Below are positions 1,802-22,434 of a stretch of 64,000 bases of DNA, in pieces (positions within the stretch are counted from its first letter, which is position 1; every line of letters starts with the position of its first letter). Under the pieces are notes generated by a model that had not been told where the DNA came from, ran no database searches, and saw nothing but the letters and a program-made list of their open reading frames with translations. The stretch is taken from NCBI GenBank assembly GCA_046590495.1, contig JBKJTE010000029.1, forward strand, positions 329-64,328, read 5' to 3'. This DNA is from Gemmatimonas sp. Its GTDB lineage: Bacteria > Gemmatimonadota > Gemmatimonadetes > Gemmatimonadales > Gemmatimonadaceae. A program made the position numbers and the translations under genes.

Positions 1802-2711
1802 GGCCACTGATTCCCTCCCGCATGTTGCCGAGAGGAGATGTGGAGGCGGTGGCAGCGAGCAATGCACGAGCGATCACTGGCGCTTCGCGGGCGTCGACTG
1901 CGTACGCGTCGGCGCCGACACGCGAGACCATGTCCCGATCGTCGACGAAGACTTTGCCGCCAACCATTACCCGCACGTTTGGGTTGCGCGATGACGACCG
2001 GAGACGACGAATCTCCCGTTTCAGCGTCGAGAGGCGGTTTTCGCAGCCGACAGAGAACCCGATGACGTCGAACCATTCGGAGGAAACCATAGCCAACAGG
2101 TCCGCTTCAGTCCATGGCGCACCGACCAGCACGCGCCATCCATCGCGGAGCATGAATTCAGCGACGATGATTGCGCCGAGGGTGTGCTGCTCGCCCGGGA
2201 CGCAGGTGAGCAGCACGTTGCCGACCGTTTCGAGGCGACCCGCGTCGGCGAGAAACACCTGCGACAGGTCGCGCAGAAGGCGCTGGATACGTCCCATCGC
2301 CACCGTCACTTCGACGAAATCGCATTCGTCGGAGTCCCAAAGGGTGCCCAGTCGTCGTGCGGTGGGCGCGAGCAAGTCGACGTAGATCGCGTCGATGGCT
2401 GTGCCATTCGCGACCAGATCCCGGACGTACTGAACAGCCAGACCGTCTTCCTGGCCGCGGACCGCGGCCACGAAAGCGGTGACGTCGGCATCGGAGAGAT
2501 GACGGGCCACGGCTGAGGTGGTCGAGGGAGGGACAGGTCCGGCCCGGTGGCTCAACATGAGCCGTGGCACAATCTCATTCTGGATCATGCGTTCGAGACG
2601 TTCGCGTTGGCGAGCGGCGGCAGACTGCGTAACGTCCACGGGTTCACTTCGACCGAGTGCGCTGATTTCTAGTGGTCTTTCCACGGCGGGGGTCTGGGAC
2701 GCGCCGAACAT
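1767..2711 (-). CDS. ppaA: PpaA/AerR cobalamin-binding antirepressor-type regulator
   Basis: B12-binding-domain signature ExHxxG in VPGEQHTLGAIIVAEFMLRDGWRVLVG. Position is immediately upstream of ppsR. The long ORF 1767..3125 was trimmed to the ATG at 2711 (MFGASQTPAV...) because its upstream part runs across the bchF promoter and start. Confidence 0.8.
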   Translation of the reverse strand: MFGASQTPAVERPLEISALGRSEPVDVTQSAAARQRERLERMIQNEIVPRLMLSHRAGPVPPSTTSAVARHLSDADVTAFVAAVRGQEDGLAVQYVRDLVANGTAIDAIYVDLLAPTARRLGTLWDSDECDFVEVTVAMGRIQRLLRDLSQVFLADAGRLETVGNVLLTCVPGEQHTLGAIIVAEFMLRDGWRVLVGAPWTEADLLAMVSSEWFDVIGFSVGCENRLSTLKREIRRLRSSSRNPNVRVMVGGKVFVDDRDMVSRVGADAYAVDAREAPVIARALLAATASTSPLGNMREGISGHGELSEAVRRE

Positions 2712-2779
2712 TGCCGTTATGCCTCCCGGGCGCAAGAACGAAAAGATTCCGAGGCGAACATTGCGCGCCTCGGCCCGAT

Positions 2780-4749
<1,970 letters not shown>

Positions 4750-13442: not shown

Positions 13443-14894
13443 ATGGCGAACCCTTCTCCGACAGTGATCCGGACGTGGCAGCGGATAGGCACGCGGTTTA
13501 TGCCATTTGCCGATGTTACGACGGCGGAGCTCCCGCTGAGTCGTCTCATGCGGCTCACCCTGTTCCAGATCTCGGTCGGGATGGTGCAGACGCTGTTTGT
13601 GGGCACGCTCAATCGGGTCATGATTCTCGAGTTGCGCGTTCCCGCGACACTCGTTGCCGTGATGCTCGCGATCCCGCTGCTCGTCGCCCCATTCCGCGCA
13701 CTAGTCGGATTTCGCTCCGACACGCATCGCAGTCTGCTCGGCTGGAAGCGCGTGCCGTATTTGTGGTTCGGTACACTGCTGCAATTTGGTGGTCTGGCGA
13801 TCATGCCATTTGCCCTGCTGGTCCTGTCCGATCCCAATCGGCACGGCTCCATCGTGGTTGGCTACATCGGTACTGCCGTTGCGTTTCTGCTGGTTGGTTC
13901 AGGCGCTCACACCACACAGACAGCTGGACTCGCGCTCGCAACGGATGTGGTTTCCGATGACAAACGTCCGCGTGTGATTGCCTTGATGTACCTGATGATG
14001 CTCTTCGGAACGCTGGTGAGTGCCCTGGTGCTCGAAGCGCTCTTGCGTGATTTCAATCCGATTAAACTGGTGCAGGTCATTCAGGGTACCGCTGTCTTCA
14101 CTGTGGTCGTCAATCTCGTGTCGCTGTGGAAGCAGGAAGCTCGCGTGCGCGGCGTCGAGGAGTACAAGAAGGGCGAGCGGCGGCCGATGTTCCGCGATGC
14201 GTGGCGGACGTTCGCGGCGGGCGGTCAGGCCGTCCGTCTGCTCGTGGCATCGGGGCTTGGTTTTTTTGCATTCAACTTGCAGGACGTGTTGCTCGAGCCA
14301 TACGGCGGCGAGATCCTCGGTCTTTCCGTTTCGCAAACCACGTTGCTCACCGCCATCATGGCTGCGGGTGCGGTCGCCGCGTTCGCGGTTTCGGCCGCAA
14401 TGCTTCGTCGCCATCACGACCCGATTCGCCTGGCCGCACTTGGTGCGCTGATCGGCATCATCGGATTTGCGACCATTGTTTTCGCGAGTCCACTCGAATC
14501 GCCGCTGCTGTTCCGCATTGGCGTGGCGACGATTGGCTTCGGCGAAGGATTCTTTGGTGTCGGCACGTTGTGCTTCGCGATGGACATGCGGGATCCATCG
14601 CAGCATGGCATCGCGCTCGGCGCGTGGGGCGCGGTGTTCGCGACAGCCGAGGGGTTGTCGTTCGCGCTCAGCGGAATCATGAAAGACTGGATGTCGCACC
14701 TCGTGCAGACCGGTGTGCTCGGCCCAGGCCTCAGCCTCCCGTCGGTGCCCTATTCGGTTGTGTACCACGTAGAAATACTCGTGCTGTTCGCAACGCTCGT
14801 TGCGCTCGGCCCGCTGGTCGCTCGTCGCGCTCCCGGTCAAGCCGAGCGTGACCGCAATGCTCGCCCGTTCGGCCTCGCTGATATCCCCGCTTGA
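13443..14894 (+). CDS. lhaA: LhaA / PucC-family MFS protein (LH1 assembly factor)
   Basis: 483-aa 12-TM BCD/PucC-family protein located between acsF and puhA, as in other PGCs. Confidence 0.88.
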
Positions 14895-14922: not shown

Positions 14923-15123
14923 ATGAAGTACATCGATGGAGCACAGATCGCGCTCTACGCATTCTGGCTCTTCTTCGCAGGGCTGATCATCTACATCCGT
15001 CGCGAAGACAAGCGCGAGGGATATCCACTCGAGTCGCCGCAGGGACCGCGCGAAGGGTGGCCGAAGCCACCTGCCAAGAAGACCTACATTCATCGGCCGC
15101 AGGGCGGCGAAGGGACGCACTGA
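14923..15123 (+). CDS. puhA: Reaction-centre H subunit, N-terminal transmembrane fragment (66 aa)
   Basis: ATG at 14923: [41 protein letters not shown]... matches the PuhA TM helix plus the REGYPLE motif. It ends at TGA 15121-15123. Confidence 0.85.
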
Positions 15124-15665
15124 TGTCTGAACTCAAGGCGGTTCCGGTCGACAACTTCAACGGCTCTCCGCTCATTCCGACGGGCAATCCGATGCTCGAC
15201 GGAGTGGGACCTGCGTCGTGGGCGAATCGCTCCGACACACCAGACATCACGGTGCATGGTGCGCCGAAGATCGTCCCGATGCGTCTCGATCCGACGTTCT
15301 CCGTCGCGAAGGGAGATCCGGATCCGCGCGGCTTACCTGTGTACGCGGCCGACAAGGTCGTTGCCGGAACGGTGGTGGAGCTATGGGTCGATCGCGCTGA
15401 ACCACAGGTGCGCTACTACGAAGTGAAGCTCGCCAATGGCGAGCGGCACATTATGCTGCCCTCCGGATTTGTGCAGTGGCCCAACTTCGGACTCTGGGGA
15501 AACGATCGACTGCTGGTGAAGGCGATCACGTCCGCGCAGTTCGCCGATGTGCCGGCAATCAAGCGCGACGATTCCATCACGCTGCTCGAAGAAGACAAAG
15601 TGATGGCGTACTTCGCGGGCGGCCACCTGTACGCGACAGCAGCTCGGAGTGAGCCGATCATATGA
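15123..15665 (+). CDS. puhA: Reaction-centre H subunit, C-terminal cytoplasmic domain fragment (180 aa)
   Basis: The ATG at 15123 overlaps the preceding stop (TGATG). [53 protein letters not shown]...ITLLEEDKVMAYFAGGHLYA is the PuhA PRC-barrel/cytoplasmic domain. It is in a different frame from the N-terminal fragment. Confidence 0.88.
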   Translation: MSELKAVPVDNFNGSPLIPTGNPMLDGVGPASWANRSDTPDITVHGAPKIVPMRLDPTFSVAKGDPDPRGLPVYAADKVVAGTVVELWVDRAEPQVRYYEVKLANGERHIMLPSGFVQWPNFGLWGNDRLLVKAITSAQFADVPAIKRDDSITLLEEDKVMAYFAGGHLYATAARSEPII

Positions 15666-16345
15666 CCACCGAAGGGGCGGGCAACCCCACGCAGATGGCT
15701 CAATACATTCGTGGCGTGCCGCATCCGTTGCCTGCGGGTGAGCATGTGTTGTGGGAAGGTGCGCCCGATCCAAACGCGATGGCCACGCATGTTTTTCATC
15801 GTCGATTGTTTCTGTTGTACTTCGCGGCGATGATCACCTGGTGGGGTTTGGATACAGCGGTTGCTTTCGGGAGTAGTGAGTTCGTCGCGAGTCTTGGTGT
15901 GCGGCTTGGACTTTCGGCGATCGTGCTTGGCGTTGTCGAGATGCTTTCGCGCGTTTCAGCGCGGACGACGTGGTACGCGATTACCAACAAGCGGATCGTG
16001 CTCAAGATCGGCATGGTGATTCCGATGTCGATCAACATTCCGTTTCAGCTCGTGCAGTCGGCAGGTGTCGGCATGTTCAAGGACGGCACAGGGCAACTCA
16101 TGCTGGTGCTCGCGAAAGACCATCGGCTCGCGTACGTCGCACTCTGGCCACACTGTCGTGTGTTTCAGCTCAACAGGCCCGAGCCGACTTTACGTGGTTT
16201 GCGCGATGCGCAGCGCATCGGTGCCCTGTTGGTGAACGCTGTCGCAGCGGCGTCAGCCGACGACAGCAGCACCCGCGTTGAACGCACGACGTCGCGTGAA
16301 CCAACTTCTGAACTTCCCGGTCGTGCGCAGCCCGTCGGTGTGTAG
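15662..16345 (+). CDS. puhB: Photosynthetic complex assembly protein PuhB
   Basis: ATGA overlap with the puhA stop. It has two TM helices and a bacterial-PH-like segment (YAITNKRIVLKIG), in the puhA-puhB-puhC order. Confidence 0.85.
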   Translation: MTTEGAGNPTQMAQYIRGVPHPLPAGEHVLWEGAPDPNAMATHVFHRRLFLLYFAAMITWWGLDTAVAFGSSEFVASLGVRLGLSAIVLGVVEMLSRVSARTTWYAITNKRIVLKIGMVIPMSINIPFQLVQSAGVGMFKDGTGQLMLVLAKDHRLAYVALWPHCRVFQLNRPEPTLRGLRDAQRIGALLVNAVAAASADDSSTRVERTTSREPTSELPGRAQPVGV

Positions 16346-16409: not shown

Positions 16410-16922
16410 ATGAGCGGACCAATCCATTTCGAGCCCGAGCCGGGTGAACGTCCCGGTTCCGCGGCAACGATGAACGTACCGCGCCCTGCGCTGATCATGG
16501 CGGGGCTGCTCGTTCTCGTCGTGTTCGCGCTGGTGATTTCGGCGCGCGTGTTCGGCGTTGGCGCATCGCACGAGCCGACGGCCGCAGTACTCGCCGAACG
16601 ACAGTTGACGTTCACGGACGCGAAGGACGGCGGCATCATCGTGGAGGACGCAAAAACGCACACGGTTGCGGCGATGCTTCCACCCGCCACGAATGGATTC
16701 ATTCGTGGGGCGCTGCGGGCCTTGACCCGGGAACGCGCCCTCGCGGGTATCGGACGCGAACAGCCGTTCCGGCTTGTACGCTATGTAGACGGTCGGCTCG
16801 TGTTGCACGATCCCGCAACGACCCAGCACATCACGATCACGAGCTTTGGGCCGACCCAGATCGAATCGTTTGATCGACTGCTGGTGATCGGGCCGACACC
16901 GCAACAAGCACTTGCGCACTGA
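16410..16922 (+). CDS. puhC: Photosynthetic complex assembly protein PuhC
   Basis: 170-aa protein with a single N-terminal TM (PALIMAGLLVLVVFALVI), positioned after puhB. Confidence 0.8.
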   Translation: MSGPIHFEPEPGERPGSAATMNVPRPALIMAGLLVLVVFALVISARVFGVGASHEPTAAVLAERQLTFTDAKDGGIIVEDAKTHTVAAMLPPATNGFIRGALRALTRERALAGIGREQPFRLVRYVDGRLVLHDPATTQHITITSFGPTQIESFDRLLVIGPTPQQALAH

Positions 16923-16927
16923 GCCGG

Positions 16928-18667
16928 CTAACGCTTTTCCCGCTCGCCGGTCGCGTTGACATATACCGTGCAGGCGAGGTCAGGCCCCACGCGCGTCCGG
17001 CGAAAGAAGACGATACTCACTGTGAGTGAGAGTGATCCATTCGCCGAGAAGCGCCCGTTGAGACGAGTCACCAGCGCAGTGCTCGTTCGTGCCTGATCGG
17101 GCATAATCCGGGGCGTCGATGCGAAGTAGCCTTCGTGATCGATGTTGCTCGGGAAGTTGTCGCCCCCGTCAAATGCGATGTTGAGGGTGTCCGCGTTCGG
17201 GATGTGCATGACTGTTGCGTAGTCGACCGTTTGCGGCGTTCGTCTCCAGACCGACGTGCACTCCTTCGAACCATTCGCTTTGGCCGCGTCGTACCGAACG
17301 GCATAGCGACCGGCCACACCAGTTGCTCGAAGACTTGTGACGGCGGATCTGGGCGCGCTGCCTTTTCGTGAGGCGACCGCCGGTGTGGGTTCTGCCGTCC
17401 GGAACTTCACCGTGGTACCGAACTCCGTAGTGATCTGCTCGATGTCGTCCTTGCGAATTTCGTGTCGCAAGCCGCTGCGCATGTCGCGGAAGACCACGGT
17501 ACCTGCCCGGATAATGTCAACACGACCCACCATGCGCGTACCGTCGGTGAGCTGTACTTCGTCGTAGACGATTGGATCAGTGCGTGTGCTTGCGAGTCCG
17601 GTGGCAGCCTGCGGTCGTGAAGCACCACTCGCGCGACGCGCCGGTTCGACGATCAGCAGGCGCGCTGTATCGGCAGCGGTTCCCGGCAACGCATTAAGGG
17701 TGATTGCGGGGACGCCCGGCATTGCATCGCCCGCGCTAGCCCGTGGGGCCTCTTGAGCGCGTTCGGTCGCCACGGACGAAGCTGACGATTCGATTGCGGC
17801 GCCAACGGCTGCCGGCGACTGCGGCGGCGCGGTCGGCGGTGACTCGGCTACCCCGGCCTGGGACGGGGCCGACGATGACGCCGTCGTTTGCGCAGTCGCG
17901 CGTTCAGTCGCGCGGTCCTTACGAATTGAGACCACCATCTGTCCGATAAAAAACAGATACGCACTCGCCGCGCAGATCACGAGGTTTCGGACCAGCTTCG
18001 GATTCAGCGGCGGCACCGACGGTCGCGTTGACGCGATGCTTCGGATCGGCGGGCGCGCGTTGGACGGCTTTGTGTTCGCGCGCGCTGTACCCGTGCGACC
18101 GAGCGATGGCGTGCGCGGGTACGCGATACCAGTACCTGTCGCCGATACGGCAGCAGATGCCGCGGCCGGTGCCGACGCCGATGCATGCGTCTTGGTCGCA
18201 CCGAATGCGACTGTCTGCGTTGCGCGCGAAGGCGCTGCGCGCGAAGGCGCCGCGCCCTCGCCAGTTGTTGTGGTCTCGCTGGAGAATGGAGGCGCGATCC
18301 GCAGCCAATCGGCAGGGATTGCACCCAGCGCAAAGCCCCACGATTCCGCCGCCCACCGCGCCATCTCCGGCTGCACGAAACGCTCGGCCGACCATCGCAT
18401 CACGAAGGGCGATGTAAGCGCGTCCCAGCGCGCCGCGGGGATCGGCTCGGTTGGCAACGCATCAAGCCAGCCACGATGGATTGCTTCCAGCAGCAACTCT
18501 GCCAGCGGACGCGCATCACTCCCTGTTTCATCGAGTAGTCGATTGCGAAAGATTGCCAACGCCGCGGCGTCGCGCGCCGGCCGCTCCTGCTGCACGAGTT
18601 GACGCAGTGCGTTTCGCATACGAATGCGCGGATCAACAAACCTCGTCACGCAAACGCTCCCCGACAC
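16928..18667 (-). CDS. Uncharacterised single-pass membrane protein, paralogue 2 (N-terminal helical domain, Ala/Pro/Ser-rich linker, TM, extra beta-rich segment, C-terminal 2-Cys domain)
   Basis: It shares N-terminal (RNRLLDETGSDARPLAELLL...ARWAAESWGFAL) and C-terminal (GRYAVRY...ECTSV...LACTVYV) similarity with ORF 18693..20006. The TM is LVICAASAYLFFIGQMVVSI. The start is GTG 18667 or ATG 18619. Confidence 0.7.
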   Translation of the reverse strand: MSGSVCVTRFVDPRIRMRNALRQLVQQERPARDAAALAIFRNRLLDETGSDARPLAELLLEAIHRGWLDALPTEPIPAARWDALTSPFVMRWSAERFVQPEMARWAAESWGFALGAIPADWLRIAPPFSSETTTTGEGAAPSRAAPSRATQTVAFGATKTHASASAPAAASAAVSATGTGIAYPRTPSLGRTGTARANTKPSNARPPIRSIASTRPSVPPLNPKLVRNLVICAASAYLFFIGQMVVSIRKDRATERATAQTTASSSAPSQAGVAESPPTAPPQSPAAVGAAIESSASSVATERAQEAPRASAGDAMPGVPAITLNALPGTAADTARLLIVEPARRASGASRPQAATGLASTRTDPIVYDEVQLTDGTRMVGRVDIIRAGTVVFRDMRSGLRHEIRKDDIEQITTEFGTTVKFRTAEPTPAVASRKGSAPRSAVTSLRATGVAGRYAVRYDAAKANGSKECTSVWRRTPQTVDYATVMHIPNADTLNIAFDGGDNFPSNIDHEGYFASTPRIMPDQARTSTALVTRLNGRFSANGSLSLTVSIVFFRRTRVGPDLACTVYVNATGEREKR

Positions 18668-18692
18668 GGCGCGCGGTGCAGTACGTGCGCGT

Positions 18693-20006
18693 TCATTCCG
18701 GTATCCGCTCTGCGTCGAGCTGCGCGACCGTCGTGCACACCTGCGTGCGCCCCCAACGGAGAATCGCTTCGGTGTTGGTGCTCGTTTCCGCCGTGAATCC
18801 GCTGGACGTGAAACGACCGCGCATCCGGAAAGTCCACGTTACGCCGTCGGTCGTACCACGCTGTGGCCCGGCCTCAAAATATGCGTCGGCATCGAGGCGT
18901 CCGTTCACCGATCGCGACGCCAATGCAAAGAGGAAAGTCCCCGGTGCATGCGACACGACTTCAATCGTGCTCGGCGCGCGCGCGAGTGCATCGGCAACGG
19001 TGACGCAACTCGGACTGCCGGTCACCGACACCGAACGCTGCGTGACACGATAGCGTCCGCCCAAGCCGCGCGAGATCAGCTGCGCGCCATCGGACGGGGT
19101 CGGTGGGAGTGCAACTGAATGTGACGCCGACACACCACCAACGACGACACTGCGAACACCAGCCGCACTCTCGGCGGGCGGGAGAGCCCGCATCGCTCCA
19201 AGAGCGGCGATGCGAACGGAGTCTGCCGAGGAGCCTGGTTCGACGACGGGCAGCACCGACGCCGCCAGAATGTTCTCGACACGTCGCCCACGCAGCGCCA
19301 CGAAAGCGGCGATGAACATGACGACGGCAGCGATCCCCATCGTGGCCAATGCGGTCCGCTCAATCCGCTGCATCTGTGCGAGGCTTTTTGCGGTCATTGC
19401 GGGTGACAACGCACGCCGCCTCGCTATGACTGCCCGGGCGGTCGCCGGATGCACTTTCGCTTTTGCCGCATTGCCGGCCAATGCCACGGTTGCACCGGTT
19501 CGACCTGCGCTCTGACCACTCGCCGCCGACGGCGGGCGCAGTGGCGTGGGGGCACCGATCTGCGTCGGCGCAGGCCTCGCGACCGCCAACGGCACCATGC
19601 CAACGGCGCGGACAAACCCCGCGCTCGTAACCAAAGGGCTCGTTTCGGCATGCACAATCGACGGCCGTGTGACCTGTTGCGGCGCGACCTCCAGCACGGC
19701 GCCCCACGTGTCGACCAGCCATCGCGCGACGTCGGTTTGCAAGTAGCGCGTCGCGACGAGTTGATGCACAAGCGGCGCGCGACGCGCGTCCCACGGTACG
19801 TGCGCATTGTGCGCAATCAGTTGCGGTCGCAGCTGCGTCCCCGTAGCCAACAACAAATCGACCAGTGGACGATGATCGCTGCCGCAGGCGTCGAGCAACA
19901 AGTTGCAGAACTGTGCGGGTGCGCTGTCGAGCAGATCGGCGTGCGCCCGAAATGTCGCCGAAAGTGCCCCAGCAGTGCGCGCGAATGCGTCCTGTTCCAT
20001 CGACAT
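18693..20006 (-). CDS. Uncharacterised single-pass membrane protein, paralogue 1
   Basis: ATG at 20006, 9 nt after the kinase stop. N-terminal domain: CNLLLDACGSDHRPLVDLLL...ARWLVDTWGAVL. TM: ALATMGIAAVVMFIAAFVAL. C-terminal domain: GRYRVTQ...SCVTV...QVCTTVA. Confidence 0.7.
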   Translation of the reverse strand: MSMEQDAFARTAGALSATFRAHADLLDSAPAQFCNLLLDACGSDHRPLVDLLLATGTQLRPQLIAHNAHVPWDARRAPLVHQLVATRYLQTDVARWLVDTWGAVLEVAPQQVTRPSIVHAETSPLVTSAGFVRAVGMVPLAVARPAPTQIGAPTPLRPPSAASGQSAGRTGATVALAGNAAKAKVHPATARAVIARRRALSPAMTAKSLAQMQRIERTALATMGIAAVVMFIAAFVALRGRRVENILAASVLPVVEPGSSADSVRIAALGAMRALPPAESAAGVRSVVVGGVSASHSVALPPTPSDGAQLISRGLGGRYRVTQRSVSVTGSPSCVTVADALARAPSTIEVVSHAPGTFLFALASRSVNGRLDADAYFEAGPQRGTTDGVTWTFRMRGRFTSSGFTAETSTNTEAILRWGRTQVCTTVAQLDAERIPE

Positions 20007-20014
20007 GTTGTCGC

Positions 20015-21439
20015 TCAGTGCAACACGTCAAAGCGGAGCACACGTGTCGGCACTTCGCTGCCGATGCGCACCGCCAATCCCGGTACGCACTCGAGCGACG
20101 CATTGCGCCCGATGTCCGGTCCGTCGATCACGTGCCAAGTGGTGTCGCTGGTGTTCACGAGCCACCACTTGCCGCCATGTTGCGCGACATAGCCACGTGC
20201 ATCGCGCACCGCCCGTTCGTTGGGCAATACGCCGACGCGCAGGTGCCAGTCGTGGAGCGCGAGGTGATGCCACAGCACGAGCACGTCGCCTTCATCGACG
20301 ATCCCAGCGCCGGTGTCGCGAAGGTTGCGCGCCACAATTACCGGTGCCGCTACGCGTTCTTCGCCACGCATCGATGTCATCGGCAGCCCGGGACCGAGCA
20401 GTGTCCAGTGTCCTGAAGGCATAGGATAGAGGAGCTGCATCGTCCGATACAACGCCAGCTCCCACTCGGCGGCATCGGCCCGTCGCGCAGGACTGTGCAG
20501 CCCATCGACAAACGTCTGCGTGAAACAACGTGCGAGGTATGGACCTAGTCGCGCAAAAGGAATCTGGATAGAGTCGGTCGGCGGGTTGCGTCGATCGGTG
20601 GGATGCTCGACAAAGAGCGCGCGCGCTCCCATCGACAACTGTTCGTCCTCCTCCGCTGAGCGCGTGCTGTTCACACGCTTCCCTTGCAACGGATGACGCT
20701 GCAGCAGCAACTCGTACAGCAGGACCGCGAGTGCATGCTTGTCCGTCTCAATCGACGGCTGCGCTTTGTTCGACAATACCTCCGGCGCGATATATCCGGG
20801 CGTGCCCAGCACCGATGGCGGTGCAACGCCCGGCACCACAAGCGAGTCGATGTCGATGATGCATGCTTCGCCGCCTTTGGGATCGACGAGTACATTCTTG
20901 TTCGAGAGGTCCGCGTGTGCGAGCCCCGCCATGTGCAATCGTCGCACTGCTCGTGCAAGGCGCACGCCGATCTGCAGTCGTGTGAGCAGGTTGCCTGCTT
21001 CGGCCGCAGGCACAAAACGCGAGGCCTTGCCGCCCGAGAACCAACGGACCTCCTTCTCCTGTCGCGTGCCGAAACGATCAGTGAAGTAGAACGTCGGCTT
21101 ATACGTCGGCGTTACAACGGCGAGCGGTGGCCACACCAGCTGTTGCCTGCGCGCGAACTCGAGCGGGATCGCGTTCGCGCCATCCACCATTCCGACCGGC
21201 CAACAGAAGTACGGCGTCCAGTACGCGCCGTTTGTGGCAAGCGTCGGATTATAGTTGGTGAGAATGCGGGTCAGCCGGTCGACACGCTCGCGCCGGTCGG
21301 AAAGATGTCCATAGAAAAAACCGACCGCATGCTGGCGATCGCGCGTGAGAAATACGCGCTTCTCGGCGCCTGTCCCGACCGGCTCGTCCTCGATCTGCAG
21401 GACGCGCCCGTCCGTCAAACGGACGGCGACGAGACCCAT
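20015..21439 (-). CDS. Atypical eukaryotic-like Ser/Thr protein kinase with an extra C-terminal beta-rich (FHA-like?) domain
   Basis: Catalytic-loop-like HADLSNKNVLV, a DFG-equivalent IIDIDS, and an activation segment GTPGYIAPEVL. The C-terminal ~130 aa (GYVAQHGGKWWLVNTSDTTWHV...GLAVRIGSEVPTRVLRF) resembles FHA topology, which is inference. Confidence 0.75.
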   Translation of the reverse strand: MGLVAVRLTDGRVLQIEDEPVGTGAEKRVFLTRDRQHAVGFFYGHLSDRRERVDRLTRILTNYNPTLATNGAYWTPYFCWPVGMVDGANAIPLEFARRQQLVWPPLAVVTPTYKPTFYFTDRFGTRQEKEVRWFSGGKASRFVPAAEAGNLLTRLQIGVRLARAVRRLHMAGLAHADLSNKNVLVDPKGGEACIIDIDSLVVPGVAPPSVLGTPGYIAPEVLSNKAQPSIETDKHALAVLLYELLLQRHPLQGKRVNSTRSAEEDEQLSMGARALFVEHPTDRRNPPTDSIQIPFARLGPYLARCFTQTFVDGLHSPARRADAAEWELALYRTMQLLYPMPSGHWTLLGPGLPMTSMRGEERVAAPVIVARNLRDTGAGIVDEGDVLVLWHHLALHDWHLRVGVLPNERAVRDARGYVAQHGGKWWLVNTSDTTWHVIDGPDIGRNASLECVPGLAVRIGSEVPTRVLRFDVLH

Positions 21440-22434
21440 GCGACGAACAGTGTGCGGTCATCGTTTTCGCCACGCTTTTCAAACGCAAGCCACTCCATCA
21501 ACGCATGTACAGGGTCCGCGGCATGCAGCACTGCACCCCGCATCGCCTGAGTCATGCCTGCGGCCCCGGCATTGGTGTCATTCACGCCACTTTCCATCTG
21601 CGAGAAGAGTGCGGGCGCGTGGCGGCTGAACGGGTACCATGGGTCTTCGACGCCGTCCGTCGCCAGCAACAAGGCGTGAATTGCCGATGCGTCGTGCACG
21701 GCGAGCGATGCACCCAGCCGCTCCACGGCGCCGTCGTCAGGGAGAAAGTGCGTGACTTCACCGGAGAAGTCGCCCGCGTCGCCGCTGTGCGGTAAGTGCA
21801 CCGTGTGGTCGGCGCCGAGCAACGTGACCACACCATCGCCCACCTGAACGGTTGCGATGCGCGATGCATGTTCTGCCGCCACCAGCAGCGTCGTCCGGAG
21901 GTCACGCAGGGAGAGGTCCGCCAGTTCGGCGAATCGTCGCATGGCGCGATTGGCTGATTCGCCGGCGTGTGAGATCGCGGCGGGCAACGCATCGGCGGGC
22001 GCTCGGCCGTGTGCCAGCGCGTCGCGCAGCGCATGCGAGGCAACGTGCGTGGCGATCGCCGAACCGAGGCGACTCCATCGCGCGGAGCCCGCGCCGTCGG
22101 CCACCGCGGCACACCAACCCCCGGCAAAGGTGAGCACCACGCCAGCGTCTTCACGATGCTCGCCGCGATGAGCGTGCAGCCGTCCGCGACGCGACCCGAT
22201 CAGCAACGACCGGTGCGCTGACATCGCCCGGGTCCCTGTCGCTTCTACGGGGGCGTGCTGCCCGTCGGGAGCCTGCAATCCCGGGGCGACGATGTCGAGG
22301 TGCGCGAGCCACTCGTGCGGGCACCACGGGCCTTCTGGAAACTTGACACTCCACGTCGCGTGCGGCGGTGCGGACGCGCTCGACGCGCTCGACACAGCGC
22401 TCGCGGCATCGTTCGACGAAGTTGGTAATGTCAC
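21415..22434 (-). CDS. PP2C-family Ser/Thr phosphatase
   Basis: PP2C-like metal-binding motifs AVADGAGSARWS and LLATDGVEDPW. GTG start 3 nt after the vWA stop. It overlaps the kinase start by 25 nt. Confidence 0.75.
   Translation of the reverse strand: MTLPTSSNDAASAVSSASSASAPPHATWSVKFPEGPWCPHEWLAHLDIVAPGLQAPDGQHAPVEATGTRAMSAHRSLLIGSRRGRLHAHRGEHREDAGVVLTFAGGWCAAVADGAGSARWSRLGSAIATHVASHALRDALAHGRAPADALPAAISHAGESANRAMRRFAELADLSLRDLRTTLLVAAEHASRIATVQVGDGVVTLLGADHTVHLPHSGDAGDFSGEVTHFLPDDGAVERLGASLAVHDASAIHALLLATDGVEDPWYPFSRHAPALFSQMESGVNDTNAGAAGMTQAMRGAVLHAADPVHALMEWLAFEKRGENDDRTLFVAWVSSPSV

Follow-up and report, generated by a model that had tools for sequence, protein, structure and literature searches.

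The H subunit of the Gemmatimonas phototrophica reaction centre (RC) 'is fragmented into two parts', encoded by two ORFs that were named puhA1 (204 bp) and puhA2 (546 bp) (Qian et al. 2022, PMC8849296). The presence of both polypeptides was verified by mass spectrometry, with masses of approximately 7.7 and 19.9 kDa, and Ht and Hc were separate chains in the cryo-EM density; the NCBI pipeline had overlooked this G. phototrophica gene (PMC8849296). A 2025 mSystems paper described H as split also in G. groenlandica and Pseudogemmatithrix and termed the split 'specific to Gemmatimonadota' (PMC12817894). Cryo-EM map fitting showed the two polypeptides in the assembled G. groenlandica RC, and one ancient fission followed by remodelling of the junction was proposed in the same paper (PMC12817894). 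Few structural changes have affected the purple-bacterial-type RC since its transfer into Gemmatimonadota; the split H is one of them and is already published as a hallmark of the light-harvesting members of this group.

Here we describe another species' instance of this arrangement, located in a 64,000-nucleotide stretch of Gemmatimonas sp. DNA (contig JBKJTE010000029.1), referred to below as the window. An earlier note on this DNA had pointed to the cryo-EM structure of the G. phototrophica RC-dLH complex, with RC-Ht and RC-Hc as distinct chains; chains H1 and H2 of PDB entry 7O0U and the accompanying publication (PMC8849296) bear this out. We estimate a probability of about 0.93 that the pair of ORFs in the window corresponds to puhA1 and puhA2, the split H genes of phototrophic Gemmatimonadota, translationally coupled and giving two polypeptides.

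Results

Two adjacent ORFs replace puhA between lhaA and puhB

The window holds a photosynthesis gene cluster, the first block of which consists of bchN, bchB, bchH, bchL, bchM, acsF, lhaA, puhA1, puhA2, puhB and puhC. The gene order lhaA-puhA1-puhA2-puhB-puhC, all on the plus strand, is that of a single operon. Directly upstream of puhA1 lies lhaA (13443-14894), which encodes a PucC-family, MFS-type protein (Pfam PUCC, E = 3.8e-132) and likewise adjoins the split puhA in related loci. Two adjacent ORFs on the same strand stand in place of puhA between lhaA and puhB, the layout that defines the split. The sequence and the ORF list place puhA1 (14923-15123, 201 bp) from an ATG at 14923-14925 through 66 codons to a TGA at 15121-15123; the product, RC-Ht, ends in ...RPQGGEGTH and carries a single transmembrane (TM) helix, an 11-letter motif and part of the linker. 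According to the same sources, puhA2 (15123-15665, 543 bp) starts with the ATG at 15123-15125 and runs for 180 codons, ending in ...SEPII, to a stop at 15663-15665; its product, RC-Hc, is the cytoplasmic domain with its PRC barrel. The two genes have one base in common, within a TGATG (15121-15125) made of the puhA1 TGA and the puhA2 ATG, and the reading frame of puhA2 is +2 (equivalent to -1) relative to puhA1. The sizes of the two ORFs, their different frames and the TGATG junction had been claimed beforehand, and all were confirmed to the base. A GTG at 15057, offered as an Hc start by the mechanical ORF list (extension 15057-15122, 202 aa in total), found no support among homologues; it was rejected because the homologues and the PDB chain sequences begin at the overlapping ATG.

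Downstream, puhB (15662-16345) scored 168.6 bits with NCBIfam NF040894 puhB_PGC (cut-off 110) and puhC (16410-16922) scored 156.2 bits with NCBIfam TIGR03054 PuhC (cut-off 55). The puhB ATG overlaps the puhA2 stop in an ATGA at 15662-15665, and through this second overlap the three genes puhA1, puhA2 and puhB are linked into a series of overlapping cistrons. Past puhC, the cluster is interrupted by four genes on the minus strand (16928-22434) that have no obvious photosynthetic role: two large ORFs of 579 and 437 aa had no Pfam match, and the other two encode a Pkinase domain (20015-21439) and a PP2C phosphatase (21415-22434). These are followed by pufC, pufM and pufL on the minus strand and, beyond pufL, by bchZ, bchY, bchX, bchD and a DUF3623 gene.

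Both ORFs are orthologous to Ht and Hc chains of known structure

The earlier note had claimed that homology to PuhA is divided between the two ORFs, and their complementary coverage of two family profiles bears this out. In the Pfam PRCH profile (134 positions), the first ORF corresponds to positions 5-66 (E = 1e-20) and the second to positions 82-133, followed by the PRC barrel. In the NCBIfam TIGR01150 puhA profile (262 positions, family cut-off of 200 bits), Ht covers positions 6-70 with 77.7 bits and Hc positions 86-262 with 239.5 bits. The definition of a single-chain PuhA, one polypeptide matching the whole 262-position profile with more than 200 bits, does not describe this locus, where the homology lies in two ORFs in different frames. 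Approximately 15 profile positions of the linker are missing at the break between Ht and Hc. When the ORFs were aligned with the unsplit PuhA of Limnohabitans and Steroidobacteraceae, the break was located in the extended linker, approximately 35 residues past the TM helix. The note had set it at the boundary between the TM and cytoplasmic parts: the structural seam, the linker, is the same, but the break does not coincide with the end of the helix.

In the PDB, the two ORFs matched best to individual Ht and Hc chains, from 7O0U, 9H19 and 9H22, aligned end to end with E values of 1e-38 (Ht) and 1e-98 (Hc). Global identity of Ht was 89% to chain H of 9H22 (66 aa) and 85% to chain H1 of 7O0U (67 aa); that of Hc was 79% to chain K of 9H22 (180 aa) and 78% to chain H2 of 7O0U ('RC-Hc', 181 aa). 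The deposited Hc chain sequences start with MSD..., and the chains of 9H19 and 9H22 are labelled 'reaction centre Ht/Hc sub unit'. Nothing among the data gathered spoke against the identity of the pair as puhA1 and puhA2.

Public records of the Ht cluster mostly read 'hypothetical protein', and Hc alone is named subunit H. The Ht score, far below the 200-bit cut-off of TIGR01150, explains the former label.

The junction is conserved in related Gemmatimonadota and both halves are under purifying selection

The conservation of the junction was checked by scanning one genome per species, which gave 73 Gemmatimonadota loci and 7 proteobacterial loci. Upstream DNA was included in 72 of the Gemmatimonadota loci, and these together with the window make up the 73 junctions compared below. 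All 72 loci with upstream DNA had a split puhA. The one-nucleotide overlap of stop and start, with the same frame relation, was found in 71 of them (72/73 with the window), across an Hc identity of 64-93%. The T-R-A-T-G letters were counted in 73/73 junctions (62 TGATG, 10 TAATG and 1 TAGTG). The stop/start junction of the window is therefore conserved in its relatives, which are referred to as clade A. In the sole clade-A locus whose Ht frame reads past the TGATG (L061, approximately 2790-2815), the letters are kept; a one-nucleotide difference upstream shifts the Ht stop 11 nt downstream and results in a 14-nt overlap with Hc. This junction may reflect genuine variation or a fault in the assembly of the MAG.

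The closest genome locus (L001) belongs to an uncultured Gemmatimonadaceae MAG, with an Hc 93% identical to that of the window. A protein search returned more than 120 protein clusters with a 180-aa Hc, at identities down to 71%, and members of the Ht cluster were labelled Gemmatimonas sp. or Gemmatimonadaceae. The labels of the 73 closest loci were Gemmatimonas, Gemmatimonadaceae, Gemmatimonadales or Gemmatimonadota, with two exceptions: the record of L037 is labelled 'bacterium', and L025 (CALQGY020000004.1), a typical clade-A split puhA with 82% Hc identity, is titled 'Candidatus Kuenenia stuttgartiensis', a planctomycete. The latter, a MAG contig, has most likely been placed in the wrong bin or given a wrong label.

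Among the proteobacterial loci of the scan, those including the 5' end of puhA had a single uninterrupted ORF, and the 57 other puhA loci of the metagenome sample were also unsplit, in one ORF. The split is thus lineage-specific.

Comparison of the window with 13 relatives by the Nei-Gojobori method gave dN/dS values of 0.06-0.29 (Ht) and 0.05-0.28 (Hc), indicating purifying selection on both halves. The claim that the locus encodes two functional polypeptides and is not decaying is supported by these values, by the orthology to the Ht and Hc structures and by the mass spectrometry of orthologues. From the orthology, the conserved junction and the purifying selection, we infer that the RC of this organism also contains two separate polypeptides.

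A Shine-Dalgarno-like motif precedes the Hc start

Within the 3' end of puhA1, a Shine-Dalgarno (SD)-like purine run, GAAGGGA (15109-15115, plus strand), precedes the puhA2 ATG by 8-14 nt. Across clade A it takes the form G-R-R-G-R-R-A at positions -14 to -8 of the Hc start. The G at -11 was present in 73/73 junctions and the G at -14 in 71/73, and purines were found at -13, -12 and -10 in 70-73 of the 73. The two codons under the motif toggle between Glu and Gly (GAG, GGA, GGG). Since the bases of the motif are kept while the encoded residues vary, the constraint looks to be at the nucleotide level, as for an SD site, and not at the amino-acid level. The GRRGRRA run inside puhA1 therefore looks like an SD site for Hc.

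A stop/start overlap with an embedded SD is the usual layout of translationally coupled genes in bacterial operons and suits subunits needed in a 1:1 ratio. Such gene pairs are found in the E. coli trp operon, where translationally coupled genes overlap by stop and start codons (TGATG or ATGA). The window presents this configuration, with TGATG at 15121-15125 and GAAGGGA at 15109-15115 inside the upstream cistron. We propose that one operon transcript would give two polypeptides, Ht and Hc. Initiation of Hc would take place at the ATG overlapping the Ht stop and would be served by the SD embedded in the Ht coding sequence, so that ribosomes ending Ht would be placed to start Hc, as in ordinary translational coupling. 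The geometry and the conserved SD suggest that this arrangement would favour roughly equimolar synthesis of the two products. RC-Ht would be a 66-aa single-pass membrane anchor packing against the RC and LH1, RC-Hc a 180-aa soluble PRC-barrel domain capping the cytoplasmic face of RC-L/M, and the two would assemble non-covalently where purple bacteria have one H chain.

The earlier note had described the junction as one of termination-reinitiation. This is plausible but appears too narrow, given the conserved SD-like motif upstream of the Hc start; with this motif, pure reinitiation by the terminating ribosome would be no more likely than SD-assisted coupled initiation.

Other clades with a split puhA use different junctions

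An exhaustive HMMER search with Hc returned short, Hc-only proteins with 43-59% identity, and examination of their contigs led to at least three further clades split at the same linker as the window type (clade A, TRATG overlap). Clade B, with approximately 60 clusters, has an Hc of 167-184 aa, a 4-nt ATGA overlap at the junction and an Ht of 92-160 aa with long, low-complexity C-terminal tails that are acidic or rich in Pro/Thr. The gene order is bchM-lhaA-puhA1-puhA2-puhB-puhC-orf-acsF, and one MAG is labelled Gemmatimonadota. The loci studied are L081-L083, L086 and L090-L092, with puhA1 at 2615-3004 and puhA2 at 3001-3537 in L081. Clade C also has approximately 60 clusters, with 72-96% identity, an Hc of 191-196 aa and an Ht of 69 aa; one member is labelled Gemmatimonadaceae. 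Ht and Hc share a reading frame in this clade: in 11/11 metagenomic loci, a stop codon (10 TAG, 1 TAA) is followed by one variable codon and then the ATG; L084 and L085 are arranged in the same way (loci L084-L085 and L093-L106; in L084, Ht at 2788-2997 and Hc, 191 aa, at 3001-3576). Clade D consists of two loci (L121 and L129), one of them on an 81-kb contig, and a seven-member protein cluster. It is approximately 50% identical to every other clade and has a GTGA overlap, with a 66-aa Ht and a 172-aa Hc starting from the GTG in GTGA (junction ...gaggagatcgagcTGTGAgcg). Two loci were singletons, L088 with a TAG directly followed by ATG and L089 with TGATG. All these junctions carry an SD-like element rich in purines (GAGGAG, GGAG or similar) a few bases before the start.

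Split lineages outside Gemmatimonadota were considered but found no support: every label found for the short, Hc-only proteins was Gemmatimonadota or Gemmatimonadaceae, and clade D is unlabelled, no taxon label having been found for L121, L129 or the cluster. We also rejected P0228/L087 as a further split lineage, as many of its genes are fragmented and it looks error-ridden. On this contig (ENA contig_15596), bchM, puhA, puhB and their neighbours are all broken into small ORFs, which looks like an indel-rich assembly and is a warning for counts of split genes in metagenomes. The library searched contained no paper on split puhA other than those on Gemmatimonadota, and junction types were treated in none; the junction diversity of the other split clades may be unreported.

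Neighbour-joining on the Hc domain, with bootstrapping, placed 81/82 split-type sequences in one group with no full-length sequence inside. A first neighbour-joining tree, in which some split forms were found among full-length ones, was discarded as a sampling artefact after denser sampling had produced this grouping. Clade C fell outside the main split group in 97/100 Hc bootstrap replicates, and the union of A and B was weakly supported. In a tree of LhaA, each clade was monophyletic and no union of clades was supported (A+C in 50/100 replicates, all four in 12/100); LhaA identity between clades was 46-54%, no higher than to clusters with an unsplit puhA. Because neither tree reliably unites the clades, H may have been split independently several times, or the photosynthesis genes may have entered these lineages more than once, a reading that we put forward tentatively and consider rather unlikely. 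If it is true, selection in these hosts would favour separation at this linker, which would then be no frozen accident.

Alternative readings of the break

Two ORFs would also result from a one-nucleotide indel in a normal, single puhA, be it a sequencing or assembly artefact or a recent frameshift creating a pseudogene. Artefacts of this kind are known in other assemblies, among them the error-ridden L087 with its many fragmented photosynthesis genes, a one-nucleotide difference moves the Ht stop 11 nt downstream in L061, and the window is drawn from a single 64.8-kb NCBI contig. However, the junction and frame relation were identical in 71/72 independent Gemmatimonadota assemblies, and two cultured species, in which structures show H as two chains, also carry this junction. 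The dN/dS values of 0.05-0.29 and the position of the conserved start codon and SD, exactly at the break, also speak against this reading, and the absence of approximately 15 profile positions of unsplit PuhA at the junction means that a single-base correction could not restore a canonical H. On the basis of the 71/72 conservation and the dN/dS values, we excluded a sequencing error or a decaying pseudogene; the chance that the break is such an artefact is extremely small. Programmed -1 ribosomal frameshifting or bypass of the stop codon, by which a fused, full-length H would be made, is also highly improbable. The Hc frame is the -1 frame and overlaps the Ht stop, as expected of a -1 frameshift site, but a search of 15100-15123 for a slippery heptamer X XXY YYZ found none, the sequence there reading G GGA CGC ACT GAT G. 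In addition, the Hc frame has its own conserved ATG and SD. The sister split clades have an ATGA overlap, or an in-frame stop, a spacer codon and an ATG, and no single recoding mechanism fits all these frame relations. The polypeptides of approximately 7.7 and 19.9 kDa in G. phototrophica, with their separate density chains (PMC8849296), also argue against a fusion, and this candidate was rejected.

The possibility that translation of Hc is uncoupled from that of Ht and starts independently, on an internal transcript or by SD-driven initiation de novo, is more serious, though we doubt it. Every split clade examined shows strong conservation of the SD-like motif before the Hc start. Clade C has a 3-nt spacer and the overlap is absent from L088, which indicates that the overlap is dispensable and that the exact one-nucleotide geometry is not essential for the split as such. 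On the other hand, 71/72 clade-A genomes retain this overlap over the 64-93% range of Hc identity, a sign that the stop/start geometry is under selection. The Hc start also lies within a translated upstream ORF, a situation for which knowledge of bacterial operons predicts coupling. Independent initiation of Hc is a refinement of coupled synthesis of Ht and Hc, our preferred explanation, and does not contradict it.

Discussion

The H split itself being known, the conserved TRATG/SD junction, the purifying selection on both halves and the variety of junctions elsewhere are modest additions to it. The conserved junction and its SD give a simple, testable logic for expression, and the split clades, with their varied junctions, amount to a small natural experiment in the fixation of a gene fission. 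The records described above point to a systematic annotation gap, in which automated pipelines can miss the anchor or flag a pseudogene. The ORF pair should be annotated puhA1 and puhA2.

The window can be compared with several known systems. With the coupled trp pairs of E. coli it has in common the overlapping stop and start, the SD in the upstream coding region and products that are subunits needed in equal amounts; unlike those pairs, its cistrons each encode half of a protein that is elsewhere a single chain, and its coupling is predicted. The purple-bacterial PuhA (TIGR01150; PDB 1DXR, 3WMM and 1E14) has the TM helix, the linker and the PRC barrel in the same order, and the Hc of the window is 52-57% identical to the closest PuhA of Limnohabitans and Steroidobacteraceae. 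In contrast to the window, purple-bacterial PuhA is one ORF of approximately 250-265 aa, and approximately 15 of its linker profile positions have no counterpart at the break.

The likeness to the Gemmatimonadota systems is closer. G. phototrophica AP64 (7O0U-7O0X, PMC8849296) has the same two-gene arrangement adjoining lhaA, with genes of similar size, and shares with the window an Ht ending in ...GEGTH and an Hc beginning with MS(D/E). It is another species, and each of its genes is one codon longer (204 and 546 bp, against 201 and 543 bp in the window). G. groenlandica (9H19/9H22, PMC12817894) is also distinct from the species of the window; the lengths of its two chains in 9H22, 66 and 180 aa, are identical to those encoded by puhA1 and puhA2 in the window.
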